Part shown: positions 10,143-53,338 of the stretch, one piece after another
How the letters are laid out: each line of letters opens with the position of its first letter
Numbering within the stretch: position 1 is the first letter of the stretch
Assembly: GCA_030949985.1 (NCBI GenBank)
Contig: JAUZRX010000063.1
Coordinates: 6,855 to 70,854 of the forward strand
Direction of reading: 5' to 3'
DNA: 64,000 bases
DNA from: Acidobacteriota bacterium
Lineage (GTDB): Bacteria > Acidobacteriota > Polarisedimenticolia > J045
Notes under the pieces: model-generated
Told to the model about the DNA's origin: nothing
Seen by the model: the letters and a program-made list of their open reading frames with translations, nothing else
Databases searched by the model: none
Program-made: the position numbers and the translations under genes

Positions 10143-10145
10143 ACC

Positions 10146-10829: not shown

Positions 10830-10890
10830 GCAGGGGGCCCCGGCCGGAGTTACAATCGCTGCTTCCGATTCGGCTTGCGCAGGAGGTTCC

Positions 10891-37000: not shown

Positions 37001-37790
37001 CGTCGACCGGTCGCAGGGCGACCAGCGCCAGGGCCAGCACGACCGCCGCCGCACCGCCCAGCACCCGCCAGCGCGGGGCGACGCGCCGGCGAGTGACGAC
37101 CAGGACGGCGGCCAGGCCCACGACCAGTCCCAGCCAGGCACCCAGCGAGGCGGTCAGCACCAGCCCGAGGAGGATCAGCGGCAGGCAGGCGATGACCAGC
37201 GGCCGGGAGGACCCGCGGTCCGCCAGGACAGCGACGGCGGCCAGTCCCGCCAGCACCAGCGCCCCGGCCAGGGCGGCGGGCACCACGTGGGTGCCGAACA
37301 CCCGCCCGTGTTCGAGGCGCAGGATCATCTCGGCGGGCAGGCCGAGTCGCCGGGCCGCGGCCGCATCGAGGGCCATCAGTCCCAGACGCTGGGCCAGGGC
37401 CAGCAGCCCGAGACCCGCGCCGATCAGCGCCAGCACGAGCGGTACCTTCGCCCGGGCCGCCGCGCCGGCACCCCGGGCGGCCCAGAAAGCGGCGAGGGCC
37501 AGCACCCAACCGGCGACCACGCCGAGGCTGCGACCCGGAGCGAGGGAGACCGCGAAGTGAAAACCACCCAGCCCCACCACGCACAGGGCGGTGACGATCC
37601 CCGGGGCGGGGACAGCCACCCACAGCGCGGGAGCGAGAATCAGCGCCAGCAGAACGCCGGACAGGGGGTGAACCTCCGGCGGCAGTCCCAAGGCGATCCC
37701 GCCGGCCACGGCCACGAGAGCCGCCGGCCAGGTTCGGCGATCGACGCCCCTGGACGAGGTGTCGACAGGGCCATGACCTTCGGCCGTCAT
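34065..37790 (-). CDS. Giant polytopic protein with two O-antigen-ligase (Wzy_C)-like signatures and C-terminal TPR domain
   Basis: 1,241 aa, more than 20 TM helices. Motif 1 SETLYAHNSWLQIAAEGGWPALALL; motif 2 TFSGPHSDPLALLLALGLPAG. C-terminal about 250 aa are soluble TPR-like repeats. ATG overlaps the upstream stop (ATGA at 37787-37790). Confidence 0.7.
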   Translation of the reverse strand: MTAEGHGPVDTSSRGVDRRTWPAALVAVAGGIALGLPPEVHPLSGVLLALILAPALWVAVPAPGIVTALCVVGLGGFHFAVSLAPGRSLGVVAGWVLALAAFWAARGAGAAARAKVPLVLALIGAGLGLLALAQRLGLMALDAAAARRLGLPAEMILRLEHGRVFGTHVVPAALAGALVLAGLAAVAVLADRGSSRPLVIACLPLILLGLVLTASLGAWLGLVVGLAAVLVVTRRRVAPRWRVLGGAAAVVLALALVALRPVDVADLSRPDNPLRLRLGNWRGAVLMATAQPVTGTGLGSFGALYPRYRRAGDSETLYAHNSWLQIAAEGGWPALALLCAAAVFFFRRWRGVSGAGDGLWLLAALLAFVVHNLVDFTAYLPGVAVPAAILAGMVFARPGASDRPPTGAAPFVARAIALVLLLAAGGWWSMETASRGLMDRAMLEAAERPVSAAEVAARAARIAPWSTSRTVTAGNLLLAAGDRRSLAVLGGLLQVPLRLDSASPAPWHLLARWRLARGEVSAAWEAYRLAAIRHPAASAIRRQIEAIERAFDEKGLIGAESVPAPGEGSVPASAPAWQPWDDTLVLVGGLILLVVAVSLRRSGLVGALAVALSLVCLISAFGEGGALPGVRLVRAVVVAFAVLAWLLARSPEGRGRWPAWGGGAALVLGAWAALAAACAPAPLAARDGWLSLLTAGAILGLSFFLARENPHWIRICLTVVAAAAGLEAGLWLVQKGLLAAGVAVASRAPPLGTPNPLRPAGDFLHPGHLGTFLVVGAAALLGAGIRVSRGRALLALLLVFAGLSGGSRASLLALVAAGGVFASCASSRRLRRAVTAVVVVALVFGAAVVVWRLGYGDPYAWTRTRIWRAALEALFDRPWLGFGPGGFGPLAPRWSFEDPGSVARWSRTFSGPHSDPLALLLALGLPAGLIALALGGLGWCRAWAAARRAGSLAPVAALAAVSALLAHGLVDDLFSERPATWVVASLLAGVCLAGVARDRSGWVFEGCARRRAVALAVILAVVAGEVLPWAADRAFRAGRPEWALRLEPRSGRYALAMLERPVGRLAHVDSSRERALLARRMRPYDPLAWVRWAELEERLCRDLLPEQGACARALAGWSAALARRPEDVFARRHRARLRAHLGRLHAAEDDLRIALHTEPNFLAARLDLARVLIEQGRAGPACEQWSALESLARRLSGVRPDSRRGSALLRLSAREVAGVRQRCEALSPVTGDTGDRPAEGG

Positions 37791-39292
37791 GGAGCGCCCT
37801 GCGCGTCGGGCCCCGTCCGATGGACCCGGTAGACAGTGAAGTACATCGGATCGGGCCCCCGGACGAACATCCCGTCAAAGCGGAACAGGCCGATCCGCTC
37901 GAGCGCCAGGCCGGGGATCTCCCGCCGCAGCGGCTCGGGCGCGATCTCCACCAGCACCTCCGGGGGATGGAGGGCGAGGTAACGATCGATCGCACCCTCC
38001 CTTTTGAAGGGTACGATTTCGGGAGTCGCCAACCCATTGAGATCGAGGATCCTGCGTCCCGAGAGCAGTCCCAGGGCCCCGATGTTCGGTGTGGCGATCA
38101 CCGCGTCGAGGGGCGTTTCGGCGGCCAGACGCCGGGCCAGGGGGAAGACCACGGTCTGCATCGAGCGGCCGTAGGCCCGGGTCCGGGGCACCACGACGGT
38201 GGTGGCCAGCACCAGGTTGCCCGCCAGCGTCGCAGCCACCACGCCGCCCCACAGCCAGTTTCCCCGCACGCCATCCAGCCTCCGCGCCGCCGCCACCATC
38301 CCGGCCATGCCCACGGCCACCACCAGCGCGGTCAGGGGCAGCAGGTAGCGCGTGTAGACCCGGACGTGGCGTAGGGCATAGACCAGCAACAGCAGCACGG
38401 CGAACAGGAGCACGACGCGCACCAGGTCGCCGCGCCCCGGGGCGCGCTCCGAGCGCGCCTCGCCCTCCCCCGCCCAGAGCCACGCGGCGACCGGCAGGAA
38501 CAGCAGGGCCGGCAGCTGGGTCGACGCGACAACCACCAGGACTCGAGCGGCGGCTTCGGAAGCCCCGATGTTCATCGCGCCCAGGCTGCCCTTGGCCGCC
38601 ATGGTCGAGGGCAGCACGGTGCCCCAGGTCCGCAACGCGAAGACGCTCCAGGCCACGGCCACCAGTCCTCCCGCGAGCAGGTCCCCGGCCAGTCGGGACT
38701 CCCTGCCGCGGAAAGCCCGCCAGGCCTCCATGAGCACCACCGCGAAAGTGAACAGGGCCAGCTCGGGTCGCACCAACGGAGCGACGGCCAGCAGGAGGCT
38801 GCCCAGGCGATCGACGAGGCTGCCCCGCCCGGCCCGCACCCGGATCAGCGCCGCCCCGCACACCACGGCCACCGCCAGACCGGTCTCCATGCCGCTCCAC
38901 AGCCAGCGCGCGGTCCAGGCATCGGCCGCCAGCGCGAGGCTGGTGGCCCACGCCGCCCGTACATCGCCGGCCAGGCATCCGGCGAGCCGGGATGCGCAGA
39001 TGATGCCCACCACCCAGAAAAAAGCGGAGAGGAACTGGGCGACCCGCACTCCCCCGAAACCCACCTTGCCCAGCGACACCAGGGTCAGCAGCCAGGCTCC
39101 GGAAGAGGCGACGTCGACGTTCTGATGAGGGTTGAATCCCCAACCGCGGCCGGAGAGCACGTTGTCGACCACGCGCAGATAGATGAACAGGTCGTCCGGC
39201 TGAAAGTCGAGACAGGGCAAGGCGGCGACCACTGCCGCCAGGGCGGGGAGCATCGCCGCCCATCGGTGCGTGTGCTGCCCGCTGTCGATCAC
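37787..39292 (-). CDS. GT-C-superfamily-like integral membrane glycosyltransferase (putative)
   Basis: 501 aa. TM1 followed by LDFQPDDLFIYLRVVDNVLSGRGWGFNP (acidic DD loop motif as in ArnT/PMT/arabinosyltransferases), about 11 TM helices, soluble C-terminal domain. GTG at 39292 or ATG at 39253. Confidence 0.45.
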   Translation of the reverse strand: MIDSGQHTHRWAAMLPALAAVVAALPCLDFQPDDLFIYLRVVDNVLSGRGWGFNPHQNVDVASSGAWLLTLVSLGKVGFGGVRVAQFLSAFFWVVGIICASRLAGCLAGDVRAAWATSLALAADAWTARWLWSGMETGLAVAVVCGAALIRVRAGRGSLVDRLGSLLLAVAPLVRPELALFTFAVVLMEAWRAFRGRESRLAGDLLAGGLVAVAWSVFALRTWGTVLPSTMAAKGSLGAMNIGASEAAARVLVVVASTQLPALLFLPVAAWLWAGEGEARSERAPGRGDLVRVVLLFAVLLLLVYALRHVRVYTRYLLPLTALVVAVGMAGMVAAARRLDGVRGNWLWGGVVAATLAGNLVLATTVVVPRTRAYGRSMQTVVFPLARRLAAETPLDAVIATPNIGALGLLSGRRILDLNGLATPEIVPFKREGAIDRYLALHPPEVLVEIAPEPLRREIPGLALERIGLFRFDGMFVRGPDPMYFTVYRVHRTGPDAQGAP

Positions 39293-39448
39293 AAAGGTGA
39301 AGGCTCCCGCCGTGGACTGGATCTCCGCACGCTCATCCCGGAGACATCATACTCGCAGCGCGCCTTTTGGGAACCCGCCCTGCCGCCCAACACTGCGGAT
39401 GCGACCCTGACACGGGGCGCCCCATGATCCTCCACCCGGAGCCGAGGA

Positions 39449-39922
39449 TCAGTCGGGAGCGTTGAGAAAGCCCCCGTCGGCGAAAACGATGTCGTAATCG
39501 AACTCTCGAGCCGTCGCGCGGGATATGTTCTGAGGGCCGTCGACCCCGTCCCGGCCGTAGCTCTCGATCGTGTAATGGCTGCTGCCCGAGCTGTAGGCCA
39601 GGTCGTTTCCCCAGGCGTCGGTCGTCTCGACCCGCTTGTAGACCTGATCCGACAAGGCCGCCGACAACTCGGCTGCGGTAATGCCGTTGCGCGGGAATGC
39701 GCTGTGGTCGTTCGAGTAGGCCTCGACGGCCGTGCCGACGTTGCGGATGGTGGTCATGGTCTTGCGCTGGCGGCTCTTGTCGAGAGCAGACTGGAGATTG
39801 ACTACCGCGATGGCGGCGATGATACCGATCACGGCGACGGTGACCAGCAGTTCGACGAGAGTGAACCCCAGCGCCTGCCCGTACCGCGCGCGGGGACCGA
39901 GAGAATCCCTGTCCTTCTCCAT
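39449..39922 (-). CDS. Type IV pilin (second, minor or alternative pilin) with 19-aa leader
   Basis: [30 protein letters not shown]|FTLVELLVTVAVIGIIAAIAVVNL (G-1, F+1, E+5). C-domain shares …RQ(R/K)KTM…VGTAVEAYS…SYG(R/K)DG…FD(Y/D)DI(V/I)F(A/Q)DG(G/A)F… with pilA. Confidence 0.85.
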   Translation of the reverse strand: MEKDRDSLGPRARYGQALGFTLVELLVTVAVIGIIAAIAVVNLQSALDKSRQRKTMTTIRNVGTAVEAYSNDHSAFPRNGITAAELSAALSDQVYKRVETTDAWGNDLAYSSGSSHYTIESYGRDGVDGPQNISRATAREFDYDIVFADGGFLNAPD

Positions 39923-40007
39923 CTCCCTCCTCCTCCACGATCCTCCCCCGGCGAAAAGAAACCGGGGGCAGGCAGCGAGGCCCGCCCCCGGCCATCTCGC
40001 CCAAGGG

Positions 40008-40466
40008 CTACTGCTGCTGGCCTTCAGGCCACTGGACGAAGGCACCATCCTGGAAAATGATGTCATCGTCGAAGCTGGTGGTCTTACCGCCGGTGGCGGT
40101 GGTCTTGGTGCCGTCCTTTCCGTAGGACCGGACCGTGTAGTTGGCCCCTCCGGTGGCGGACTGGTACTTCAGGGCGTTGCTCCAGCCATCGTCATCCGGG
40201 CACTTCTTGATGTAGACCGGCTCGAGGTGGGTGTCGAGATTCCCGTTGACATCCGACTCGGTGGTGATGGTGGGGTAACGGTTGTTGTCCACCGAGTAGG
40301 CCTCGACAGCCGTGCCGACACTGCGCATATCGGCCATGGTCCGCTTCTGACGACCACGGTCGATGGCGTTGAGCAGGTTCGGGATGGCGATCGCGGCGAT
40401 AATGCCGATGATGGCCACCACGATCAGCAACTCGATGAGGGTGAATCCACGTTCGTTCCGACGCAT
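40008..40466 (-). CDS. pilA: Type IVa major pilin PilA
   Basis: GGGAGG RBS. MRRNERG|FTLIELLIVVAIIGIIAAIAIPNLL, a classic class III signal. 152 aa. Thr/Ser/Gly-rich C-terminal stretch KDGTKTTATGGKTTSFDDD. Confidence 0.9.
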   Translation of the reverse strand: MRRNERGFTLIELLIVVAIIGIIAAIAIPNLLNAIDRGRQKRTMADMRSVGTAVEAYSVDNNRYPTITTESDVNGNLDTHLEPVYIKKCPDDDGWSNALKYQSATGGANYTVRSYGKDGTKTTATGGKTTSFDDDIIFQDGAFVQWPEGQQQ

Positions 40467-40516
40467 GCTTTTGTTTCCTCCCTTAAAGCCTTAAGGTTTT
40501 CCGGACACTGTCTCCA

Positions 40517-40532
40517 AGCAATCTCGGTGCCA
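40517..40532 (-). promoter_or_regulatory. Sigma-54 (RpoN) promoter TGGCAC-N5-TTGCT upstream of pilA
   Basis: Minus strand reads TGGCACCGAGATTGCT about 50 nt upstream of the pilA ATG. A perfect -24 GG/-12 GC match, consistent with the adjacent sigma-54 activator PilR. Confidence 0.75.
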
Positions 40533-40660
40533 GAAAGGCCACTGTCCAGCATTTCGTTTAACTCCAATAGATACTTAAAGTTACATGGCCGCCCGCGGCC
40601 ACCTCGCCCCTTCCCTCGCCCGGACTGACATTCTGTGGCAAGTGGGGGTGACAATCCATG

Positions 40661-42085
40661 TCATTTCTTCCCCGCCGGGCCCGCTCCCACCAGGCCGGCC
40701 TCTTCGCGGGTGGATGAGCCCGCCGGACGCGCCGTCAGGCCGAACTTCTTCGCGAAGTAGCGGAACGAGCGAAACGTCATGCCCAGCCGCCGGGCCGCCT
40801 TCGTCTGGACGCCACCGGCCTGTTCGAGAGCCTGCTGCATGAAAACCCTGCGCTGCTCGTCGAGATAGCTTTCGAGGTCGAAGTCTTCGGGCATCGTTCC
40901 CGCTCCGGCCACCGGCAGTCCCGAACCGCCCCTGATTTCCACGGGAAGCAGATCCTCGCGCAGTTCACCCCCACTCGACAGGGCGACCATGCGCTCGAGA
41001 ACATTCTCGAGTTCCCGAACATTGCCCGGCCACGAGTAGCGGGAGAAAGCCGCGATCACCGCCGGTTCGACGGCCAGGTCTCTTCGCCCCAGCCGCTCGC
41101 CCTGCCGCAGCAGGAAGGCGGCGACCAGCTCGGGGATGTCTTCCGCCCGCTCCCGCAACGGCGGGACCTCGACCCGAATCACGTTGATCCTGTAGTAGAG
41201 GTCCTCCCGGAAGCGCCCCTCCCGGACCAGTGTGTCGAGATCCCGGTGAGTCGCAGCCAGGATACGGACGTCGATGGGAATCTCCTCGGAGCCGCCGACC
41301 CGCCGGATCCGGCGATCTTGCAGCACGCGCAGCAGCTTGACCTGCATCTGGGCCGGCATGTCGCCGATCTCGTCGAGGAAGAGAGTCCCGCCCTCGGCGG
41401 CCTCCACCAGGCCGCGCCGAGCCCGGTCCGCCCCCGTAAACGCCCCCTTGACGTGCCCGAAGAGTTCGGACTCCAGCAGGCTCGCGGGAATCGCCCCGCA
41501 ATTGATGCCGATGAAGGGATGCTCCCGGCGGGGCGAGGCCTGATGGATCGCCCGGGCGACGACCTCCTTGCCGCTTCCGGACTCACCGGTGATCAGAACC
41601 GTACTCTCGGTCGCGGCGATCCGGCCCACCACATCCCGCAGTTCCTGGGTCCGTCCGCAACTCCCGATCAGGCGCCCCTCGAGTTGCAGCCGGCTGCGCA
41701 GGCGACGGTTTTCCGCGCTCAGTCGGGCATGCCCCAGGGCCCGCCGCACGTGGAGTTGCATCTCCTCCACGTTGAAGGGCTTTTCGAGGTAGTTCACAGC
41801 CCCGTGCCGCATCGCCTCGATCGCCGTCTCCTTCGAGCCATAGGCCGTGATCACCATCGAAGGCGTCTCGGGCCGGGCCTCGCGAATCCGCCTCAGCAGC
41901 GCCAGGCCATCCATACCCGGCATGGAAAGGTCGGTGATGACCAGGTCGATATCTTCGGTCTCGAAGACCTCCAGGGCCTTCTCGGCGGAGGAAGCGCAAA
42001 GCACCCTGTGCCCGTCGGAGCGCAGGGCGGCGCGCAGCACCTCACGGATTCCTGCCTCGTCATCGACGACCAGAATCAGCGACAT
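40661..42085 (-). CDS. pilR: Sigma-54-dependent response regulator PilR (NtrC family)
   Basis: REC domain ([12 protein letters not shown]…[14 protein letters not shown]), AAA+ sigma-54 interaction domain ([21 protein letters not shown]), C-terminal Fis-type HTH. Confidence 0.9.
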
Positions 42086-43740
42086 CAGCGTTCCCCCCCC
42101 GGGGCCTCTGCCGCGGCGGCTGCGGCCACCGGAACCTGGGCAGCGGGCAGAATCAGGCGTATCTCGGTCCCGCGGCCCGGCTGGGAGACCACCTGCACCC
42201 GGCCTCCCTGCTCCTCGATGATGCGATAGACGATCGCCGCACCCAGCCCCGCTCCCGTCTCGAAGCGCCCCTGGAAGGGCTGGAAGATGGCCTTCAAGGT
42301 GGCGTCATCCATGCCGTGCCCCTCGTCGCGGAAAGAGACCTGCACCTCGTCGCCGCCGTGGCCCTCGACCCGGATCCACAGGGTGCCCCCGTCGGGCATC
42401 GCCTTCAGGGCGTTGGAGGCCAGGTTCCAGAAGACCTGGCGCATGCTGTCGGGGTCGACGAGCGCCCGTGCGCAGCCGGGCCCGGCGATCACCTCGACCC
42501 GGTGGCCGGGGTGCAACTCCGGGCTCTTGCGCAGCAGCCTGCCGAGCTGTTCCATCATCTCGACCAGGTCGCAGGGCCGGGGGTCGTGCCCCCCCGGGCG
42601 GGCGAACTTGAGAAAGTCTCGAATGATGCGATCGAGGCGGTCCGACTCGCGCAGCACGACCTCCCGCAACCTCCCGGCTTCTTCTTCGTCGCTGTTCCCG
42701 CTGGAGAGAACCTGCACCGAACCGCAGATCGCGGCGAGGGGATTGCGCAGCTCGTGCGCCATGCCGGCAGCCATCTCGCCCAGGGCCGCCATCCTCTCAC
42801 GGGTACGCACCTGCTGCTCGAGAGAGGCGATCTCGGTCAGGTCCTGGAACACGATCAACCAGCCCTGGTGCTCACCCTCCGGCCCCCGCAAGTAGGACAC
42901 GCTGAAGCCGAGAAACAGGCGTTGTCCGTCCGCCGGACGCCGCCAGTCCCGCTCGAAACGAAAGCGACGCCCGGCGGCCAGGTGCTGGCCGGCACCCTGG
43001 GGGAACGACTCGGGCAGGTCGAAAACCTCGGCTGCCCGCCGCCGACGAAGCTGAACCGGGTCGGCCCGCAGAATTTCCAGCCCCGCCCGATTGATGAACG
43101 AGATCCGGCCATCGGGCTCGGTCGTCATCAGCCCGGTGCCGATGGAAGCGACGATGTCGGCGTGCAGAGCGCGCAACGCGATCAAGTCCTGGCGCTGCTC
43201 TTCGAGCTCTTCCCCCTGCCGCTCGAGGCGGTCGGCCAGCACCCCCCCCAGGGCTCCCAGGGCGGCAAAGGCGACGAGGTGAGAGACCGCCAGATAGAGC
43301 GCCCGCCCCGGCGGCAATTCCGTGGGCGGCAGATGCCAGGACGACCACGCCAGGAGCAGGGCGTAGAAGCCGCCCAGGATGCCCGCCGTGTAGACCCCGC
43401 CCCGCAGCCCCGCGAGAGCCGCGGCCATCATCACCGGAACCGCCAGCAGGAAAGACAGCGGCGAAAGTCCGCCCCCCGTGGCGACCAGGAAGCCGAAAAC
43501 CAGCAGGGCGTCGCCGCAAACCTGAACCACCACCATCGGCGGACCGCCACCGAGGAAGCGATCGAGCAGGGCGTAGGTCAACACGGCGGCGTAGGCACAG
43601 CCGGACAGCAGGTAGAAGGGGGTCAGGGAGCGACCGGGGTTGAAAAGAACCTCGATCACCACCGAAGCCAGCAGGAGGCTCGTCACGGCCACCGCCCGTG
43701 CGACGTTCAGTCGTCTCAGGCTTCGCCGCCGGGGATCCAC
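42085..43740 (-). CDS. pilS: Sensor histidine kinase PilS
   Basis: GTG start with AGGAGG RBS. Six N-terminal TM helices, PAS, HisKA (AAGMAHELRNPLAAI), HATPase_c. Stop overlaps the pilR start (ATGA). Confidence 0.85.
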   Translation of the reverse strand: MDPRRRSLRRLNVARAVAVTSLLLASVVIEVLFNPGRSLTPFYLLSGCAYAAVLTYALLDRFLGGGPPMVVVQVCGDALLVFGFLVATGGGLSPLSFLLAVPVMMAAALAGLRGGVYTAGILGGFYALLLAWSSWHLPPTELPPGRALYLAVSHLVAFAALGALGGVLADRLERQGEELEEQRQDLIALRALHADIVASIGTGLMTTEPDGRISFINRAGLEILRADPVQLRRRRAAEVFDLPESFPQGAGQHLAAGRRFRFERDWRRPADGQRLFLGFSVSYLRGPEGEHQGWLIVFQDLTEIASLEQQVRTRERMAALGEMAAGMAHELRNPLAAICGSVQVLSSGNSDEEEAGRLREVVLRESDRLDRIIRDFLKFARPGGHDPRPCDLVEMMEQLGRLLRKSPELHPGHRVEVIAGPGCARALVDPDSMRQVFWNLASNALKAMPDGGTLWIRVEGHGGDEVQVSFRDEGHGMDDATLKAIFQPFQGRFETGAGLGAAIVYRIIEEQGGRVQVVSQPGRGTEIRLILPAAQVPVAAAAAAEAPGGER

Positions 43741-43815: not shown

Positions 43816-45018
43816 TCAGCCGATCTTTCCGATGAGGCTGAACATCGGCATGTACATCGAAATCACGATGCCGCCGATGATGGTTCCGAGAAACACGATC
43901 ATGATCGGCTCGAGCAGGGACAGCAGGTTCTGGGTCGCCTCGTCCACCTCGTCTTCGTAGAAGTCGGCGATCTTGCTCAACATCGTGTCCATCGCGCCTG
44001 TCTGCTCTCCGACAGCGATCATCTGCACGACCATGTCGGGAAAGACCCGGGTCTCCCGCAGCGGTTCGGAAACCGTCTTACCTTCCTCGACGCTCCTCCG
44101 CACCTCGTAGATCGCATCCTCCACGATAGCGTTTCCGGAGGTTCGCGCGCAGATATCGAGGCCGTCGAGAATCGGCACGCCGGAGGAGGTCAGAGTCGAG
44201 AGCGTGCGGCAGAAACGAGAGACCGCGATCTTTCGCAGCAACATGCCGATCACGGGAATCTTCAGCAGCATCATGTCGATGACATGCCGCCCCTTGTCGG
44301 TCTTGTAGTACTGCTTGATGCCGAATCCGAGTCCAACCATGCCGCCGATCATCAGCCACCACCAGCGGCGGAGGAAATGACTCAGCGCGATGGTCAGCCG
44401 CGTGGGCATCGGCAGTTCCGCGCCCAGCCCGGTGAAGAGATCGGCGAAAACCGGGATCACGAAGGTCAGGATGACCCAGACCACGACTCCCGCGATGGCC
44501 AGTACCGCCACCGGGTAGATCAGCGCGCCCCGCACCGCCGCCTTGAGCTTGACGATCTTTTCGATGTAGACCGAAAGGCGCTGGAGAATCGTGTCCAGAA
44601 TACCGCCGGTCTCTCCCGCGGCGACCATGTTCGAGTAGAGGTCGTCGAAGACCCGCGGATGCTTGCGCATGGCATCGGCCAGCGTGGAGCCGGCTTCGAC
44701 ATCGGCCCGCACGGCGTTGAGCACGCCCTGAAAGACCTTGTTCGGCTGCTGTCCGGCCAGGATCTCGAGGCACTGCACGAGCGGCAGACCCGCGTCGATC
44801 ATCACTGAAAACTGGCGCGTGAAAACCGACAGCTCCTTCTGCTTGACGCCGCCGCGCAGTCGCGGCAAGGCGATCTCACGACCTTTTTCGGTGACCGAGG
44901 AAACGATGACGCCCTGGCGCCGGAGAGCTGCTACGGCCTCGTCCCGGGTCTTTGCATCGACCGTGCCTTCCCGGGCCTCACCTGTGCGCGTGCGACCCTT
45001 GTAGACGAAAGTAGCCAT
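43816..45018 (-). CDS. pilC: Type IV pilus platform protein PilC (GspF family)
   Basis: GGAGGAG RBS. Two GspF repeats (…FTRQFSVMIDAGLPLVQCLEIL…, …FCRTLSTLTSSGVPILDGLDIC…). 400 aa. Confidence 0.9.
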   Translation of the reverse strand: MATFVYKGRTRTGEAREGTVDAKTRDEAVAALRRQGVIVSSVTEKGREIALPRLRGGVKQKELSVFTRQFSVMIDAGLPLVQCLEILAGQQPNKVFQGVLNAVRADVEAGSTLADAMRKHPRVFDDLYSNMVAAGETGGILDTILQRLSVYIEKIVKLKAAVRGALIYPVAVLAIAGVVVWVILTFVIPVFADLFTGLGAELPMPTRLTIALSHFLRRWWWLMIGGMVGLGFGIKQYYKTDKGRHVIDMMLLKIPVIGMLLRKIAVSRFCRTLSTLTSSGVPILDGLDICARTSGNAIVEDAIYEVRRSVEEGKTVSEPLRETRVFPDMVVQMIAVGEQTGAMDTMLSKIADFYEDEVDEATQNLLSLLEPIMIVFLGTIIGGIVISMYMPMFSLIGKIG

Positions 45019-45033
45019 TGTGAATCTCTCCTC

Positions 45034-46143
45034 CTATCTCCGGCCCCGTACGGGGGCTCCGCCGCCGAGTGCTCCAACGCCGCGGTTGATCATTTCCTGC
45101 AGTTCCTCCGGGTTGTGCGAAACATCGAGGGCGACCTGCATCGAGATCTGGCGACGGAAATAGAGCGTGGCGAGAGATTGGTTGAAGGTTTGCATGCCGT
45201 GCTGGGCCTGCCCGGTCTGCATCATGGAGTAGATCTGGTGGACCTTGTCTTCCCGGATCAAGTTCCTGATCGCGGAATTCGGCACGAGGATCTCCATCGC
45301 CAGCACCCGTGCGCGTCCGTTGACGTGCGGCAGCAGCGACTGACAGAGGATGCCTTCGAGCACGAGGGAAAGCTGGGACCGAACCTGCGGCTGCTGATTG
45401 GCGGGAAAGACGTCGATAATGCGATTGATCGTCTGCGAAGCCGAATTGGTGTGCAGGGTCGCGAAGGTCAGGTGTCCCGTCTCGGCGATGCGCAGCGCGC
45501 ACTCGATCGTCTCCAGGTCACGCATCTCACCGATCAGAACCACGTCCGGATCTTGCCGCAGCACGGACCGCAACGCGTTGGGAAAGGACTTGGTATCCGC
45601 TCCCAGTTCGCGCTGGTTGACCAGGCAGCGCTTGTGGGAGTGCAGGTACTCGACAGGATCCTCGATGGTGACGATATGGGCCTGGCGCTCCCGGTTGATC
45701 TTGTCGATCATCGCCGCCAGGGTCGTACTCTTACCCGATCCGGTGGGTCCGGTGACGAGCACCAGCCCGCGGGGCCGGTCGGCAAGGGTCGCGATGACCT
45801 CCGGCAGGCCGAGTTCCTGGAAGGACTTGATCTCCCAGGGGATCGTGCGGAAGGCCGCCGCCACGGCGCCTCGCTGGAGGAAGACATTGGCCCGGAAACG
45901 AGCCAGGCCTTTCATCCCGAAGGAAAAGTCCAGTTCCAGGTTGTCCTCGAAACGGTGCTTCTGCTGGTCGGTCATCACCGAGTAGACGAGGGCCTTGGTC
46001 TCGGCGGCATTGAGGGCCGGCATCTGCAAGGGTACGAGCAGGCCGTGAATCCGGATCTGGGGCGGCGAATTGGTCGTGATGTGGAGATCGGTACCCCCCT
46101 GTTCGACCATCGTCTTGAGCAACTGCTGCAGCGATACAGCCAC
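45034..46143 (-). CDS. pilT: Twitching-motility retraction ATPase PilT
   Basis: GTG start with GAGGAG RBS. GLVLVTGPTGSGKSTT Walker A. …AHIVTIEDPVE…, AIRNLIREDK and GMQTF PilT signatures. 369 aa. Confidence 0.9.
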   Translation of the reverse strand: MAVSLQQLLKTMVEQGGTDLHITTNSPPQIRIHGLLVPLQMPALNAAETKALVYSVMTDQQKHRFEDNLELDFSFGMKGLARFRANVFLQRGAVAAAFRTIPWEIKSFQELGLPEVIATLADRPRGLVLVTGPTGSGKSTTLAAMIDKINRERQAHIVTIEDPVEYLHSHKRCLVNQRELGADTKSFPNALRSVLRQDPDVVLIGEMRDLETIECALRIAETGHLTFATLHTNSASQTINRIIDVFPANQQPQVRSQLSLVLEGILCQSLLPHVNGRARVLAMEILVPNSAIRNLIREDKVHQIYSMMQTGQAQHGMQTFNQSLATLYFRRQISMQVALDVSHNPEELQEMINRGVGALGGGAPVRGRR

Positions 46144-46188: not shown

Positions 46189-47922
46189 TCAGAACACCGT
46201 CTCCCGGACGACCTCATCGATCGTGGTCATGCCTGCCGCGATTTTTCGCAGGCCCGAACGACGGAGGGTGATCATGCCTTCCTCAACCGCCTGGCGCTTG
46301 AGTTCCAGCGCGCTGCATCCGGTGAGGATCATTTCGCGAATCTCCTCCGAGACTTCCAGAACCTCGAAGAGTCCGACCCGTCCCTTGTAGCCCGTGTTGT
46401 TGCAGGTCGGGCAACCGCGTCCCTTCAGCGGCGTGCAGGTCTCGGCCTCCTCCGGGGTGAACCCGATGTCGATCAGCGCCTGGGGCGGGATCTGCTGCTC
46501 CTGTCGGCAGTCCTTGCAGACCCGCCGCACGAGGCGCTGAGCACAGATCAGGTTGACGCTCGTAGCCACGAGGAAGGGCTCGATGCCCATGTTCATCAGG
46601 CGATTGATCGTCGAGGGCGCATCGTTGGTATGCAGGGTCGAGAGCACGAGATGGCCGGTCAGGGCGGCCTTGACCGCGATTTCGGCGGTTTCGAAGTCAC
46701 GGATCTCACCGATCAGGATGATGTCGGGGTCTTGCCGCAGAAAGGATCGCAGGGCCTCGGCGAAGGTCAGGCCGATCTGCTCCTTGGTCTGGACCTGGTT
46801 GATCCCGTGGAGATTGAACTCCACCGGATCTTCCGCCGTCATGATGTTGGTCTCGGGCTTGTTGATTCTGCTGATCGAGGAATAGAGAGTGTTCGTCTTA
46901 CCGGACCCGGTGGGCCCGGTCACCAGGACCATGCCCCAGGGCTTGAGGATCGCCCGCTCGAAGGCCTCGAAAGACTCGTCCTCGAACCCCAGCTTGGTCA
47001 GGTCGAGACAGAGATTTTCCTTGTCCAGCAGACGAAGCACGACCTTTTCGCCGAAGAGCGTGGGGACGCAGGAGACACGGTAGTCCATCTCGCGCGTCCG
47101 GTCGTCGAGCTTCATCTTGATCTTGATTCGACCGTCCTGGGGCAGTCGACGCTCGGCGATATCGAGCTTGGACATGATCTTGATGCGGCTGATGATCGCG
47201 TCTTTCAGCTTGGCCGGGGGATGCATGTATTCGTGGAGCACGCCGTCGATGCGGAAACGGACGCGGAAGTCCTTCTCGTAACTCTCCACGTGGATGTCCG
47301 AAACCCCCTTGTGGATCGCATCGACCAGGATGCGGTTGACGATCTTGACCACCGGCGCGTCGGCGCTGAGGTTCTCGAGGCTCGAAGCGTCGATCTCGTC
47401 CTCGTCGGCCATCAGCTCGACGTCTTCTTCGTCGGGCCCGGTCAACTCGAACTCTTCGTCGGCCTCGTTGGTTTCGAAGAGGTCCAGGCGCTTTTCTTCG
47501 TAGGAATGCTCGATCGCCTCGCGCAGGGCGAACTCGCTGGCCAGTACAGGCTCCACCTCGCATCCCGTCCTGAAACGGATGTCATCGAGGGCCACCACGT
47601 TGGTCGGATCCGCCATGGCGAGGGTCAGGATGTTGCCCGTCTTGTGTACCGGGAAGACCAGGTAGCGCCCGGCGATGTCTTCCGGGATCAGGTCGAGCAG
47701 GTCACGGTCGACGTGGGGAAAGAGGCTCCGCAGGTCGATGGCCGGGATGCCGTACTGCTCAGAGAGGAGGTGGACGAGATCTTCCTCGCTCACCGCGCCG
47801 GTCTGAACCAGGTGGTAACCCAGCTTACCCCCCTCGGCCTTCTGGCGTTCAAGGGCTTCAGCCAGGGCCTCCCGGGTTAACAGCCCTTCGCTGAGCAGCA
47901 GATCTCCGATGCGATCCGACAT
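46189..47922 (-). CDS. pilB: Type IV pilus extension ATPase PilB
   Basis: N-terminal MshEN-like domain, GMVLVTGPTGSGKTNT Walker A, tetracysteine CKDC…CPTC. ATG at 47922 (MSDRIG); the frame opens at TTG 47928. Confidence 0.9.
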   Translation of the reverse strand: MSDRIGDLLLSEGLLTREALAEALERQKAEGGKLGYHLVQTGAVSEEDLVHLLSEQYGIPAIDLRSLFPHVDRDLLDLIPEDIAGRYLVFPVHKTGNILTLAMADPTNVVALDDIRFRTGCEVEPVLASEFALREAIEHSYEEKRLDLFETNEADEEFELTGPDEEDVELMADEDEIDASSLENLSADAPVVKIVNRILVDAIHKGVSDIHVESYEKDFRVRFRIDGVLHEYMHPPAKLKDAIISRIKIMSKLDIAERRLPQDGRIKIKMKLDDRTREMDYRVSCVPTLFGEKVVLRLLDKENLCLDLTKLGFEDESFEAFERAILKPWGMVLVTGPTGSGKTNTLYSSISRINKPETNIMTAEDPVEFNLHGINQVQTKEQIGLTFAEALRSFLRQDPDIILIGEIRDFETAEIAVKAALTGHLVLSTLHTNDAPSTINRLMNMGIEPFLVATSVNLICAQRLVRRVCKDCRQEQQIPPQALIDIGFTPEEAETCTPLKGRGCPTCNNTGYKGRVGLFEVLEVSEEIREMILTGCSALELKRQAVEEGMITLRRSGLRKIAAGMTTIDEVVRETVF

Positions 47923-48111
47923 CCGCAACCGGCTCCTTTGCGGCCGCGCGGCGCGCGCGCCCGGTCACCGGCGACACCCCTGCCGCCAGGCAACACCTTC
48001 GGGAAGCTCCGGAGTCAAACTTGTGTGCCGGTCGGGAAAGGGTCAAGGCGGGAATGGCGGGGATCTCGCGGAATCGGGAGACAGCGGGGCGGGGCGCTCG
48101 ACTTTCGCCGA

Positions 48112-49470
48112 CTATGCGCCCCGCGCTTTCCGGCGCGCGAGGAACTCCTCCATGAAACGGGTGGAGAAATCGCCGTCCCGGAACCCGGGTTCCGCCACCA
48201 GCTCCTTGAGCAGGGGCAGATTGGTCGTGATGCCTTCGATCACGAAGAAGTCCAGGGCCCGGCCAAGGCGGGAGAGCGCCTCGTCGCGATCCCGGCCGCG
48301 CACGATCAGCTTGGCGATCATCGAGTCGTAGTGCGGCGAGACCTGGTAGCCGGCGTAGGCCGCGGTATCGATGCGGACTCCAGGCCCCCCGGGAGGATGG
48401 AAGGTCGTAATCGGCCCGGGACAGGGGCGGAAGGTCCAGGGGTCCTCCGCCGTCACCCGGGCTTCGATGCTCCACCCGCGAGGCTCGAGATCGTCCTGGC
48501 CATAGCCCAGGGGCTCCCCGGCCGCGATACGGATCTGCTCCTTGAGAAGATCGAGACCGGCGACGTTCTCCGTCACGGGGTGTTCGACCTGGATCCGCGT
48601 GTTCATCTCCATGAAATAGAACGAACGGTCTTCGTCGAGCAGGAATTCCACGGTACCCGCGTTCTGGTATTCCACCGCCCGGGCGGCCTGCACCGCGGCA
48701 CGCCCCATCTCGACCCGCAGGGCCTCGTCGAGCGCCGGAGAGGGGGCCTCCTCGATCACCTTCTGGTGGCGCCGCTGGAGCGAGCACTCCCGTTCGAAGA
48801 GGTGAACGATATTCCCGTGCAGGTCCCCGAGGATCTGGAACTCGATGTGGCGCGGCCGGACGATGAATTTCTCGAGATACAGCTCTCCCGAACCGAAGCC
48901 GGCCAGAGCCTCGGACCGACAGGTCTCGACGGCGCTTTCCAGGTCCTCCGGCCTTTCGACGACCCGCATCCCCCGACCGCCGCCCCCGGCCGCCGCCTTG
49001 ACGATCACCGGATAGCCGATTGCCTTGGCCAGCTCCGCCGCCTCCTCGAAAGACTCGAGGGTTCCCCGGCTGCCGGGAATCACGGGCACACCGGCGCTGA
49101 TCATCGCGGCCCGTGCCGCGGCCTTGTCGCCCATCTGCCGAATCGTCGCCGCCTGGGGTCCGATGAAGCTCAGGCCGCACTCGGCGCAAATCTCGGCGAA
49201 GTGCGGATTCTCGGCGAGAAAGCCATAGCCGGGGTGGATCGCATCGGCACCGGTGATCTCGGCAGCCGAGATGATGGCCCCGATGTTGAGGTAAGAGTCG
49301 GTCGACCGGGCAGGACCGATACACACGTCCTCGTCGGCGAAACGGACGTGGAGCGAATCCTGGTCGGCGTCGCTGTGCACCGCCACGGTGCGAATGCCCA
49401 GTTCCTTGCAGGCCCAAATGATCCGCAGCGCAATCTCGCCGCGGTTGGCGATGAGTATCTTCTCGAACAT
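48112..49470 (-). CDS. accC: Acetyl-CoA carboxylase biotin carboxylase subunit
   Basis: [17 protein letters not shown]…, ATP-grasp, …[14 protein letters not shown]…. 452 aa. Confidence 0.9.
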
Positions 49471-49479
49471 GGTCGTCGT

Positions 49480-49947
<468 letters not shown>

Positions 49948-50057
49948 CTCTTCCTCCGCTTTCTCCCTCCACCCGATTCCCGTCGGGTGGCAAGGCCAGG
50001 AAAAAGGCACCCGGTGTCAGGGTGCCGCGGGGATTGTGGCCGAGCGATTCGAGCGGG

Positions 50058-50471
50058 TCAACCCGGGCCTGAGGCTGCGGCGGGCCCGAGACGGTCGGCG
50101 AGGCGACCGGCGAGGACCCGGCCCGCCAGCCTCATACGTCCCAGATAGGGTTCCGGGCCCGCATCGAGAACCAGCACCAGCCCCACCGAGGGGACCCGGC
50201 GCAGCACGGCGATCCCGCCGCTACCGGTGACGATCACCTCCTCGCTGTCACCGATCCGGGCCGCGCGCAGAAGACCGGCCGCCGCCGCCATCCCTCCCAG
50301 GGCCTCGGCGCCCAGCTCTTCCAGGTCGCCGTCCAGGGCGGGATCGAAGCAGGCTCCGTCGACGAGTACGCCGTCCAGGTCGACCAGCACGGCACGGCGA
50401 ACGCCCGGGCACAGGCGGGCGGCGTCAGCCAGCAGCGAAGCCAGCTCCCCCCCTGTCATCGTCGTCACCAT
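50058..50471 (-). CDS. Roadblock/LC7-domain protein (MglB-like)
   Basis: 137 aa. …LVDLDGVLVDGACFD…SEEVIVTGSGGIAVLRRVPSVGLVLVLDA… alpha-beta-beta-alpha-beta roadblock fold pattern. ATG at 50471. Confidence 0.65.
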   Translation of the reverse strand: MVTTMTGGELASLLADAARLCPGVRRAVLVDLDGVLVDGACFDPALDGDLEELGAEALGGMAAAAGLLRAARIGDSEEVIVTGSGGIAVLRRVPSVGLVLVLDAGPEPYLGRMRLAGRVLAGRLADRLGPAAASGPG

Positions 50472-50489
50472 GGGCCGGGCCCCGTCACG

Positions 50490-51044
50490 TCACTGGGTGC
50501 CGCAGCTCGTCGCCGTCTCCACCGGCACCTGCCCACGAGCCGTCATCGGTTCGCCGCTGGCATCCTCGCCGCGGAAGACCAGGTCGATCCTCCCGCGCTC
50601 ACCGAGACTGAAGAACCCGGCCGCGATATCCGTGGCCAGCACCGTGGTCAGCTCCTGGCTCGCCGTGCCCCCGGCAGGGACGGTGATGGTCACCGATTCG
50701 CTGCGGTCGGGCGGCGCGCTCCCATCGAGGATGTAGTTGATGTCGACCGACGAAAAGATCACGTCGTTCCAGGCACCGCCGGCCTGCCCCCGCAGACGTG
50801 AGTCGAAGTTGATGGTCTGCGTCACGGAAGAATAGACCGTGGTTTCCTTGGTCCCGTCGCCATCCAGATCGACCAGCTCGCCGTCCACGTCGACGCAGGC
50901 AGTGAGCGGATTGACGCTGGATACGGTCACGACGTTCTCCGACACGCCCGGATCGTCCGTCGCGTTGTTGCAGGCCACCGCCGTCAGCACGACCACCAGG
51001 CCCAAAGCCGCCAGCGGCGACCAGACTCTCAGCTTTTCCATCAT
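50490..51044 (-). CDS. Small beta-rich lipoprotein encoded at the 3' end of the pilMNOPQ operon
   Basis: Frame opens at TTG 51065, which overlaps the pilQ stop. ATG at 51044 with GGAG RBS gives MMEKLRVWSPLAALGLVVVLTAVAC|NNATDD (signal peptide plus lipobox-like AVAC). Mature part is Thr/Ser/Val-rich. Confidence 0.6.
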   Translation of the reverse strand: MMEKLRVWSPLAALGLVVVLTAVACNNATDDPGVSENVVTVSSVNPLTACVDVDGELVDLDGDGTKETTVYSSVTQTINFDSRLRGQAGGAWNDVIFSSVDINYILDGSAPPDRSESVTITVPAGGTASQELTTVLATDIAAGFFSLGERGRIDLVFRGEDASGEPMTARGQVPVETATSCGTQ

Positions 51045-51061
51045 GGTGCCCGTCTCCATCC

Positions 51062-53338
51062 TCAAGAGGCCTTGATGATCCGCGGCGTGATGAAAATCAG
51101 CAGCTCGCGGTTGCGCGTCTGAATATTCTTCGAGCGGAACAGCCAGCCGAGTCCCGGCAGCTTGCGGAACCAGGGAACGCCCGTTTCACTCCGCCCCTCG
51201 TTGACCGTGAAGATACCGCCGATCACGGTCGTTCCGCCGTCTCCGATCAGGACCTTGGTCGTCGCCCGTTGGGTGTTGATGGCAGGCACTTCGCCAACGG
51301 TGTTGACGAAGTCCGGCGAGTTGTTCTCGACCTCGATCTCCAGCACCACTGTTCCCTCGGCCGTGATCTGGGGCGTGACCTCGAGCCGCAGCGAAGCCGA
51401 GACGAAGCGCACGTCGATCTCCGTGGCCGTGGTGCTGACCACCGGGATGCGCACACCCTGCTCGATCTCCGCCATCTCGTTGTTCTGAGTGGCGATCTTC
51501 GGGCTCGACAGCCGTCGGGCGTAGCCTTCGGTCTCGAGAGCGTCGAGAGTGATGTCCAGCGTCACCGAATCCAGCACGTTGCCGAAGGAGAACCCGAGGG
51601 CCGAGGCCGCGGGGTTACGTGCCAGGTTCAGGTCGAAGGCCCCGGCGGCCCGATGTGGAAACTGAAGGTTGGTCTGCGTTCCATTCCCCGGATCCGCCGC
51701 AGCGAAGAGACCCCAGCGAACGCCCAGATCTTTGACGAAGTCCCGGGAGACCTCGACGATGCGGGCCTCGATCATGACCTGGGGGGTCTCGGCGTCGAGG
51801 GTCGTGAGCAGCTTGTCGATCGCCTCGACACGGGTGGGAATGTCACGAATGATCAGGGTATTGGTCCGCTCATCGACGATCACCCGGCCCTTGCGGCTGA
51901 GAATGCCGTCCCGCACCACGGCCTGGACCTCCTTGGCCTTGGCGTAGGAGAGGGTCCGCGTGATGGTGACCGGCGGAACTTCAAGCTCCTTGGCCTCGAA
52001 CAGGGCCTTGCGCGCCGCCGATTCCTGGGCGAGCTTGGAGATCGGCGCAATCCGGATCACGTTGCCCTCGAGCACCATGTCCAGGCCGTTGTTCTTGAGA
52101 ATCAGGTCGAGGGCCTGGTCCCAGGGGACATCGTCGACAACGATGGTCACGACCCCCGACACGGCGGGATCCAGGACGAAGTTGAGCCCGGAGATGTCAT
52201 GGAAGAGGCTGAAGACCTGCTTGATGTCGGCGTCGATGAGCTGCAGCGAGACTTTGCGCCCGCTGTAGACCCTGCGTGCGTCCTCGATGGTCTTGGCCTC
52301 GGTATCCGGCAGGGGCACGACCTCGGCCCGACCGGTTTCGACCGGCAACGAGACGGTGTCGTGGCGCGGGGCCTCGACCCGGGTCGCCAGGCCCGCGGCC
52401 TCCTCCACCACCTGGGCGATCTCGGGCTCCTGCCAGGCCGTAGCCGGCGGCGGGGCGGCGGGAAGGCCGGAAGTCGGAGCCGGTTTGGCCACCGGCTCGG
52501 TCAGGGATGGGGTCGCCGGTGATTCCGGCACCGTCCCGGTGGCCGGCTCCGGAACTTCCATCGCCTCGCCGCCCCCGGGGGCCGGCGCGGCAGGCTCGGC
52601 GACAGGAGACGCAGGAGCCTCCAGGCGGACTTCCCGGGGAGCGGGTACCGTCTCCGCTGCGATCGCCATTTCCACCGGGGTTCCCGGCTCCGCATCACTC
52701 GCGGTCGCGTACATCGCCGGATCGGGTTCCGCCCGCGGCGGCTCCGGCACCACGGGCGCCGGCGCCACGGCGCTCGCCAGCGACGCCTCCGGCTCCCCGG
52801 AAGACCCGGGAGCCTCCGAGGGCTGGGCCTGAGTCATCGGCAGAGGGTCGCCCCCCTGGGGACTCACGCGAATCAACAGGTGCGTACCTTCGCGGACGAC
52901 ACTCCACTCCATCGGCTCGAGCAGGTCGAGGACCACCCTCGCCATGGGCGTGGGATCTTCCTGGTACTGGCCCACGCGGACCCGCACCAGGGTGTCACTT
53001 CCGACCTCGAGGCGCTGGCCGGCCTGGGGAGCCACCACGCCGGGCAGATCGAAGACGATCCGATCCGGTCCCGTCAGCGTGAAGACCTGGTAGGCCAGGG
53101 CGCCGTCGGCCTCGAGCCACACCTCGTACATGCCGCCCGAAGTCGGTTCGCTCACCGTCACTTCGCTCAGGCGAGCCGCTGGTGCCAGGCCTTCCGGCAC
53201 CGGTTCCGATGCCAGCAGAGGCGGGCGATCGTCGTAGGCGTCACCGCTCATGCCCATCACGGCCGGTGCCGCAAAGGCGATGGCGATCGTCAATGCCAGG
53301 AACCAACTGGTATGGCCCCGGAGGTAGCCCCTCCTCAT
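51062..53338 (-). CDS. pilQ: Type IV pilus secretin PilQ
   Basis: Signal peptide, AMIN domain, about 180-aa Pro/Ala/Glu-rich linker, N0/N1 domains, secretin core (…VLIGDGGTTVIGGIFTVNEG…ETGVPWFRKLPGLGWLFRSKNIQTRNRELLIFITPRII). 758 aa. Confidence 0.9.
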   Translation of the reverse strand: MRRGYLRGHTSWFLALTIAIAFAAPAVMGMSGDAYDDRPPLLASEPVPEGLAPAARLSEVTVSEPTSGGMYEVWLEADGALAYQVFTLTGPDRIVFDLPGVVAPQAGQRLEVGSDTLVRVRVGQYQEDPTPMARVVLDLLEPMEWSVVREGTHLLIRVSPQGGDPLPMTQAQPSEAPGSSGEPEASLASAVAPAPVVPEPPRAEPDPAMYATASDAEPGTPVEMAIAAETVPAPREVRLEAPASPVAEPAAPAPGGGEAMEVPEPATGTVPESPATPSLTEPVAKPAPTSGLPAAPPPATAWQEPEIAQVVEEAAGLATRVEAPRHDTVSLPVETGRAEVVPLPDTEAKTIEDARRVYSGRKVSLQLIDADIKQVFSLFHDISGLNFVLDPAVSGVVTIVVDDVPWDQALDLILKNNGLDMVLEGNVIRIAPISKLAQESAARKALFEAKELEVPPVTITRTLSYAKAKEVQAVVRDGILSRKGRVIVDERTNTLIIRDIPTRVEAIDKLLTTLDAETPQVMIEARIVEVSRDFVKDLGVRWGLFAAADPGNGTQTNLQFPHRAAGAFDLNLARNPAASALGFSFGNVLDSVTLDITLDALETEGYARRLSSPKIATQNNEMAEIEQGVRIPVVSTTATEIDVRFVSASLRLEVTPQITAEGTVVLEIEVENNSPDFVNTVGEVPAINTQRATTKVLIGDGGTTVIGGIFTVNEGRSETGVPWFRKLPGLGWLFRSKNIQTRNRELLIFITPRIIKAS

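Follow-up and report, generated by a model that had tools for sequence, protein, structure and literature searches.

Two tandem pilin genes in a type IVa pilus cluster of uncultured Acidobacteriota: a presumptive major pilin and a proposed accessory paralog

Why would a bacterium keep two different pilin genes side by side in one pilus cluster, and what might each of them contribute? The question is raised by a 64-kb stretch of DNA from an uncultured member of the Acidobacteriota (64,000 nucleotides of contig JAUZRX010000063.1, assembly GCA_030949985.1; hereafter the window), in which two type IV pilin genes, here called P1 (pilA; 40008-40466) and P2 (39449-39922), lie in tandem on the minus strand, the strand that carries every feature of the window described below. 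An earlier note on this DNA, made from the sequence alone, drew attention to the pair and suggested that the two genes may be antigenic or phase alternatives, or a major/minor pair with attenuated read-through. The second of these suggestions fits best among those offered, and the answer that we regard as probable is that P1 provides the major subunit (PilA) of a type IVa pilus (T4aP) and that P2 supplies the same machine with an accessory pilin that is conserved and less abundant. We propose that PilS and PilR would activate a sigma-54 promoter approximately 50 nucleotides (nt) upstream of P1, that most of the resulting transcripts would be terminated, or stabilised at their 3' ends, at a GC-rich hairpin and U-tract right after P1, and that the fraction that reads through would be translated from the strong ribosome-binding site of P2. 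Expressed by read-through, P2 would therefore be co-regulated with P1 and made in smaller amounts. Both prepilins would be cut by prepilin peptidase and would then enter the filament, since both carry the class III signal, i.e. Gly-1, Phe+1 and Glu+5.

Two prepilins with GspG-like heads

The product of P1 is 152 amino acids (aa) long, with a 7-aa leader, MRRNERG, that precedes FTLIELL (in a longer reading, MRRNERG precedes FTLIELLIVVAIIGIIAAIAIPN), and the product of P2 is 157 aa long, with a basic 19-aa leader, MEKDRDSLGPRARYGQALG, that precedes FTLVELL (in the longer reading, MEKDRDSLGPRARYGQALG precedes FTLVELLVTVAVIGIIAAIAVVN). These lengths, like the single Cys of P1 and the absence of any Cys from P2, are as the earlier note had described them. 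No prepilin motif other than these two occurs in the 64-kb window, and in both proteins the Gly-1/Phe+1...Glu+5 motif is followed by a hydrophobic alpha1-N helix. Both proteins score above the Pfam N_methyl cutoff of 21.2 bits (P1 at 41.2 bits, P2 at 25.7 bits), which marks each as the carrier of a class III signal, and both exceed the cutoff of TIGR02532. Where they part company is in the traits of a T4a major pilin, namely a leader of approximately 5-10 aa and a proline at position 22; P1 has both traits, and P2, with its long leader and a valine (Val22) in place of Pro22, has neither. Directly before the ATG of P2 stands a purine-rich stretch, GGAGGAGGAGGGAG (about 39923-39936), that we read as a ribosome-binding site and that is predicted to be strong. 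An extended open reading frame of 205 aa (39449-40066) was considered as the real P2 and rejected because the extension overlaps P1 and crosses the terminator-like hairpin described below, and because it is the ATG at 39922 that has the ribosome-binding site.

How closely are the two proteins related, and to what else are they related? Aligned by BLASTP, the two proteins share 45% identity over 146 aa (E 3e-30), with the N-terminus conserved and the central region more variable. The shared C-terminal frame that had been reported for the pair is largely borne out; VGTAVEAYS, SYG[KR]DG and FD[DY]DI[IV]F[QA]DG[AG]F are common to both proteins in the pairwise alignment, and only the first motif of the series has to be amended, to RQ[KR][RK]TM. 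This frame corresponds to the Pfam domain T2SSG (PF08334), which is the head of GspG-like proteins and which P1 matches at 44.9 bits and P2 at 35.9 bits against a cutoff of 21. The best full-length NCBIfam match of both is, consistently, the GspG equivalog TIGR01710, although neither reaches its cutoff of 88.85 (P1 scores 78.2 bits and P2 59.3 bits). Structure prediction, which had also been suggested in view of the disulfide-less fold, leads to the same family: AlphaFold models built from 54-sequence alignments have a pLDDT of 84 for P1 and 83 for P2, the predicted folds match GspG best, and the top Foldseek matches of the P2 model are the GspG structures 3gn9 and 3g20 (V. vulnificus, EHEC) and Thermus PilA4. 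The N-terminal segment is closest to Geobacter PilA-N. As for the core minor pilin families, the matches of P1 and P2 to GspH, GspI, ComGD and ComGE fall far below the cutoffs (for GspH, 23.5-29.6 bits against 80), and matches to minor pilin families are nearly all confined to the N-terminal helix.

What, then, of the missing disulfide? The disulfide-bonded D-region is absent, as had been observed; with one Cys in P1, none in P2, 0-3 without a conserved pair among the P1 orthologs and almost always none among the P2-type proteins, there is no Cys pair to form it. This fact was presented as an oddity for T4a pilins, and that part of the claim does not hold: both heads belong to the disulfide-free GspG/T2SSG family, and the absent Cys pair is therefore a trait of the head-domain family and no anomaly. 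In place of the disulfide that pilins have, pseudopilins of this family rely on Ca2+ (PMC5131608), which OutG/PulG bind through D117 and D125 together with the backbone carbonyls at 114, 119 and 122 (PMC13081927). P1 and P2 resemble GspG/PulG/EpsG (4lw9, 3gn9, 3g20, 5wda) in head family, in predicted fold and in the lack of a disulfide, and a candidate Asp pair in each (YGKDG...DDDI in P1, YGRDG...DYDI in P2) aligns with D117/D125. Unlike GspG, they score below the equivalog cutoff, and their genes lie in a T4aP cluster that includes pilT; additionally, the two Asp positions are separated by a loop approximately 9-11 residues longer than in OutG/PulG, and the first Asp varies within the P1 family, where relatives have N, G or T. 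The heads of P1 and P2 are possibly stabilised by means other than a disulfide, for example by a putative Ca2+ site.

Promoter, hairpin and inheritance of the pair

A perfect match to a sigma-54 (-24/-12) promoter, TGGCACCGAGATTGCT (40517-40532), lies about 50 nt upstream of the ATG of P1, next to pilR. It is the sole match in the 64-kb window at up to one mismatch, and about one such match is expected by chance, so the finding is not significant by itself; the weight of the predicted P1 promoter therefore comes from its conservation. We scanned one genome per species, which returned 510 relatives, and fetched 80 loci, nearly all of them from Acidobacteriota metagenome-assembled genomes, for comparison; in most of these, a sigma-54 match of 10-11 out of 11 stands at the same position upstream of the P1 ortholog. 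At P2-type genes no sigma-54 promoter was seen in any locus (the best match was 7 out of 11 or lower), whereas second copies of the P1 type usually have one of their own, e.g. in L031, L042, L048, L064 and L073. The full context of a T4a major pilin, i.e. pilB/T/C, pilM-Q, pilSR and a sigma-54 promoter, thus appears to be that of P1, and P2 shares only the location.

Between the two genes, a terminator scan, a repeat scan and the minimum-free-energy (MFE) fold all give an intrinsic-terminator-like hairpin after P1 (39951-39993, stem 39960-39993), in which 14 pairs, 11 of them GC pairs, close a 6-nt loop and are followed by the U-rich tail UUUCUUUUCG. The hairpin at 39960-39993 is the sole terminator-like site in the scan of 39200-40700, and the MFE fold of the spacer is built around it; a GC-rich stem-loop followed by a U-rich tract after a stop codon is what defines a Rho-independent terminator, and the element after P1 is predicted to be one. 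The earlier note had picked out two other inverted repeats, both of which exist, at other positions and with other implications than had been given. The repeat CCCCCGG-N10-CCGGGGG is found at 39945-39951/39962-39968 rather than at 39948-39971 and represents, outside the MFE fold, a less favoured way of pairing the 3' arm of the terminator (39962-39968), which is shared with the much stronger 14-pair hairpin. The repeat after P2, placed by the note at 39418-39442, is an 8-bp inverted repeat, TGATCCTC-N11-GAGGATCA, at 39425-39432/39444-39451 that overlaps the stop codon of P2, lacks a U-run and is probably due to chance.

Is there a measurable difference between the two sites? In a local-hairpin test, in which the best 44-nt fold within 70 nt after the stop codon is compared with mononucleotide shuffles, the site after P1 has z = -4.4 here and a median of -4.5 over 79 loci, 76% of which fall below -2; the site after P2 has z = -0.5 here and a median of -0.9 over 31 loci, 26% of which fall below -2. 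With this chance-level z and without a U-run, the element after P2 does not qualify as a terminator. Right after the P1 stop codon, essentially all two-pilin loci that were folded have a strong hairpin, with stem sequences that differ from locus to locus. In other words, the hairpin between the pilin genes is real and is conserved in position. No known RNA family was returned when 39000-40900 was compared with Rfam at E up to 1.

The P1 family is very large. More than 7,900 relatives are present in the protein database, the best matches being mostly 60-97% identical, and those with names come nearly all from Acidobacteriota metagenome-assembled genomes (MAGs) and are labelled GspG or 'prepilin-type'; the closest locus, L001, is from a MAG labelled Acidobacteria bacterium S139 and has a P1 that is 97% identical. 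Synteny, followed by tblastn with the proteins of the window, shows the order pilB-pilT-pilC-pilS-pilR-P1-P2-(501-aa gene)-Wzy_C, whole or in part, in dozens of loci. In about 30 of the loci P1 is followed by a gene closer to P2 than to P1; a third pilin is present in some loci, in others P1 alone precedes the Wzy_C gene, and many lineages have the same cluster with no P2 at all (e.g. L018, L019 and L022), from which it follows that this pilus can be had without P2. The features that distinguish the two proteins of the window also distinguish their relatives. Leaders are 6-8 aa long in P1 orthologs and mostly 12-28 aa long and basic in P2-type proteins; residue 22 is Pro in 93 of 97 pilins outside the P2 clade and Val in 23 of 30 within it; and the C-terminus reads F.QWPEG.QQ in P1 orthologs and DG.F.[AS]SPE in most P2-type proteins. 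The P2-type proteins group together, as one clade of 30 tips, in a neighbour-joining tree, and P2 is a member of this distinct, old orthologous clade.

Has P2 simply been left to decay? The values of dN/dS are 0.02-0.35 for both genes, which argues that the P2 gene is functional, and the idea of a decaying duplicate was rejected on these values and on the motifs, which are intact across the P2 clade. Between orthologs, pairwise identity averages 0.66 for P1 and 0.51 for P2, and P2 is the faster-evolving gene, with both under purifying selection. Additionally, dS is lower in P1 than in P2 in 10 of 10 close pairs (for the window and L001, 0.33 vs 0.94), which is consistent with a constraint on codon usage from high expression of P1.

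Known systems and rival explanations

The layout proposed here has close counterparts. A Rho-independent terminator after a pilin gene, attenuating a downstream accessory gene, is a broadly conserved arrangement, and cassettes of the form pilA-terminator-accessory gene are found in Pseudomonas aeruginosa and also in Dichelobacter nodosus, Eikenella corrodens and Xanthomonas (PMC11841053). Like the P. aeruginosa cassettes, the Acidobacteriota locus has a predicted sigma-54 pilin promoter beside pilSR, a stem-loop right after the pilin stop codon and a co-oriented downstream gene that lacks a sigma-54 promoter of its own and whose level would follow read-through. Unlike in those cassettes, the downstream gene encodes a full pilin paralog rather than an accessory protein of the TfpO/W/X/Y/Z type, the host is an environmental member of the Acidobacteriota, and the attenuation is a prediction.

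Tandem pilin paralogs occur in Kingella kingae, in Xylella and, as pilA1/pilA2, in Synechocystis. In Legionella pneumophila, PilA1 and PilA2 are likewise encoded side by side, and both look like major pilins in silico, yet only one behaves as the major pilin (PMC13170364). The Acidobacteriota pair is more diverged than the Legionella pair, its first copy is promoter-proximal and more conserved, and its second copy has a long leader and no Pro22. Thermus PilA4/PilA5 (PMC5131608; 6xxd, 6xxe) offer a different likeness, as T4aP pilins with a GspG-like head and as two pilins served by one machine, and PilA4 is among the best structural matches of the modelled Acidobacteriota pilins. Unlike P1 and P2, the Thermus pilins keep their disulfides, and their genes are not a promoter-terminator-paralog pair next to pilSR.

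Such precedents raise the question of whether P1 and P2 could instead be alternative major pilins, building two filaments with one machine, or the obligate partners of a heteropolymer. Models exist for both versions, namely the wide PilA4 and narrow PilA5 pili of Thermus thermophilus and the PilE1/PilE2 heteropolymer of Streptococcus sanguinis, and P2 would then be used when read-through rises or when an overlooked promoter fires. Much about P2 would suit this role: it is full-length, with Gly-1, Phe+1, Glu+5 and a GspG-like head modelled at a pLDDT of 83, it is under purifying selection, its pairing with P1 is conserved across many lineages, a strong ribosome-binding site precedes it, and solved precedents are found among the matches (Thermus PilA4/PilA5 in 6xxd, 6xxe and 8qqj, and the heteropolymeric pilus 8pfb). 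However, P2-type genes never have the sigma-54 promoter that P1-type duplicates usually have, a conserved terminator-like hairpin separates the two genes, P2 lacks the Pro22 that 93 of 97 pilins outside its clade keep, and the many P2-less lineages with the same cluster (L018, L019, L022) do without the supposed second subunit. We consider this rival explanation unlikely. Somewhat more doubtful to us is a bolder variant, according to which disulfide-free GspG-type subunits, possibly stabilised by Ca2+, build the Acidobacteriota T4aP, with P2 as an obligate co-polymer at a ratio fixed by read-through or as the subunit of a second filament. If true, it would provide a natural intermediate between T4aP pilins and the endopilins of type II secretion systems (T2SS) in a major phylum of soils and sediments, with a bearing on the origin of T2SS pseudopili from T4aP.

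The GspG-like heads also invite the proposal that P1 and P2 are pseudopilins of a secretion device, either T2SS-like or like Geobacter PilA-N/PilA-C, with P1 as a GspG-like endopilus subunit. To its credit are the T2SSG domain of both proteins, GspG as their best full-length NCBIfam match and as the best match of their predicted structures, and an N-terminal segment closest to PilA-N of Geobacter. The Geobacter gene order, which we take to be pilB-pilT-pilC-pilS-pilR-pilin-second gene as well, was also counted in its favour, and the Geobacter PilA-N/PilA-C system has been proposed to act in secretion. The rest of the cluster points the other way. P1 and P2 miss the GspG equivalog cutoff (78.2 and 59.3 against 88.85); the ATPase, the secretin and the platform protein score as PilB, PilQ and PilC and stay below the cutoffs for GspE, GspD and GspF; the cluster includes a PilT retraction ATPase and PilM/N/O; and no GspC/L/M or GspH-K genes were found in the window. 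A secretion device thus seems to us improbable. We give far less credence still to the idea, put forward in the earlier note, that the two genes are phase or antigenic alternatives; switching would then proceed by recombination or inversion between the tandem copies. Tandem conserved/variable pilin layouts do serve variation in some pathogens, and P1 and P2 are paralogs in tandem whose N-termini are conserved and whose central regions vary more. Against this resemblance, a scan of 39250-40700 for arms up to 40 nt apart revealed no long inverted repeat or switch-like element, no recombinase is present among the neighbouring genes scanned, and the 45% identity leaves little substrate for gene conversion. 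Moreover, P1 and P2 belong to separate old clades with different conserved features, the pair is inherited together across lineages, and dN/dS is well below 1. Nothing, in short, came to the support of switching, and it would surprise us greatly.

Returning to P1 as the major pilin and P2 as an accessory pilin supplied by read-through, what speaks against it? P2 keeps Glu5 and a full-size head and is about the size of P1, and could for these reasons itself be a major rather than a minor pilin. P2 may also have a sigma-70 promoter, since a consensus scan is weak in DNA of 68% GC. The z-scores of the hairpin rest on mononucleotide shuffles. Folded as a whole, the spacer between P1 and P2 has a z of only -1.5 against dinucleotide shuffles, and the region after P2 has +1.05; at 68% GC, the two sites can be told apart by the local-hairpin test only. 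The U-tract of the hairpin is interrupted (UUUCUUUUCG), and no more than about half of the related loci show a clear U-run, so that stabilising or processing the mRNA could be the main role of the hairpin. When nine close relatives are analysed with RNAalifold, compensatory changes are seen in only 3 of 10 pairs, the CGGGG/CCCCG core being invariant and the upper stem misaligned, and with so little covariation we relied instead on folding and shuffling locus by locus. Lastly, no prepilin peptidase is found among the window genes scanned, and no core minor pilins in the window. All of these points count against the account that we prefer.

What does this add to the field? Its components were already known separately: tandem pilin paralogs (PMC13170364), a terminator after pilA (PMC11841053) and pseudopilin-like type IV pilins (PMC5131608). 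The locus is in this sense a neat but unexceptional version of an established layout and no new kind of system. What we believe to be new is the assignment of a very large and misleadingly annotated Acidobacteriota family to T4aP and the definition of a P2 clade by a long leader, the lack of Pro22 and the apparent lack of a promoter of its own; the literature that we searched contains no experimental work on Acidobacteriota pili or on proteins of the P1/P2 type. Acidobacteriota are abundant in soils and sediments, and proteins now labelled 'general secretion pathway protein G' or 'prepilin-type domain protein' would, on our reading, be subunits of a T4aP under the control of PilSR and sigma-54 rather than T2SS pseudopilins. 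The practical value lies in better annotation and in a testable model of what sets the ratio of the subunits.

The surrounding cluster and related loci

The genes around the pair run, in minus-strand order, pilM, pilN, pilO, pilP (probable), pilQ, two small open reading frames, accB, accC, pilB, pilT, pilC, pilS, pilR, P1, P2, a 501-aa gene and a Wzy_C gene, and Pfam matches within the cluster include PilM/N/O, an AMIN secretin, PilC and the 6TM domain of PilS. We assign the encoded machine to T4aP and not to T2SS because PilB, PilT, PilQ and PilM exceed their NCBIfam cutoffs, whereas GspE, GspD and GspF stay below theirs. The individual scores are as follows: pilM (55054-56118) matches TIGR01175 at 270 against a cutoff of 133; pilQ (51062-53338), which encodes a secretin with an AMIN domain, matches TIGR02515 at 385.6 against 284 (GspD, 229 against 351); pilB (46189-47928) matches TIGR02538 at 766 against 675.65 (GspE, 607.7 against 630.25); and pilT (45034-46143) matches TIGR01420 at 493 against 319. 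For pilC (43816-45018), the Myxococcus-type PilC model is the best match at 507 bits, which is below its cutoff of 700 (GspF, 403.7 against 424). The putative regulators of P1 are a PilS-like sensor histidine kinase (42085-43740; Pfam 6TM_PilS, PAS, HisKA and HATPase_c), which is syntenic in related loci, and a PilR-like sigma-54-dependent response regulator (40661-42085; Pfam Response_reg, Sigma54_activat and HTH_8). Between pilQ and pilB (48112-51065) lie accC and accB, for a biotin carboxylase and a biotin carboxyl carrier, and two open reading frames, one with a weak Roadblock/LC7-like match (21.9 bits, cutoff 23) and one of 191 aa without a family match.

Downstream of P2 lie two further genes. 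The first (37787-39292) encodes a conserved polytopic membrane protein of 501 aa with no Pfam, NCBIfam or PDB sequence match, which follows P2 in L001, L003 and L005 and the third pilin gene in L006, L011, L012 and L015, at 47-76% identity; it could be a glycosyltransferase not yet recognised or a pilin accessory protein. In the 156-nt gap that precedes this gene, just downstream of the repeat after P2, is a 16-bp GC-rich near-perfect palindrome, CATGGGGCGCCCCGTG (39411-39426), which could be a protein-binding site or a product of chance. The second gene (34065-37790) encodes a 1241-aa O-antigen-ligase-like protein with a Wzy_C domain (Pfam, 92 bits) and C-terminal TPR repeats, the latter accounting for its only matches among PDB sequences, and most related loci, with P2 or without, have it downstream of the pilin gene or genes. 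Since the pilin O-oligosaccharyltransferases TfpO and PglL are Wzy_C proteins, this protein may, by analogy, glycosylate pilin, for example on the Thr-rich loop GTKTTATGGKTTS of P1.

Among the related loci, several variations are worth recording. The pilR gene is directly upstream of P1 in most loci and approximately 2-4.5 kb upstream in about a dozen (L017, L038, L040, L047, L051, L056, L057, L061, L069-L071 and L076), where other genes are inserted and P1 still retains its sigma-54 promoter. A third pilin gene follows P2 in L006 (11464-11910), L011 (11266-11712), L012 (6293-6739) and L015 (11264-11707); its product shares 36-40% identity with P1, combines a leader of 15-17 aa with Pro22 and terminates in ...QWPK or ...QQVPK. 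In L031, L037, L042, L048, L064, L073 and L078 (at about 9400-11400 of each locus), which represent Thermoanaerobaculum-like lineages and some others, every tandem pilin is of the P1 type, with Pro22 and a short leader, and most copies have a sigma-54 promoter of their own, which is a different solution from the layout of P1, terminator and P2. Finally, a handful of loci with a P1 that is 53-68% identical carry the labels of other taxa, namely Gemmatimonadota (L019 and L046), Verrucomicrobiia (L034), Dongiaceae (L063 and L070) and Cryosericum (L044); L019 and L070 also have a pilR-like gene, and L046 has both pilR and a P2-type gene. These labels may reflect mis-binning or horizontal transfer.

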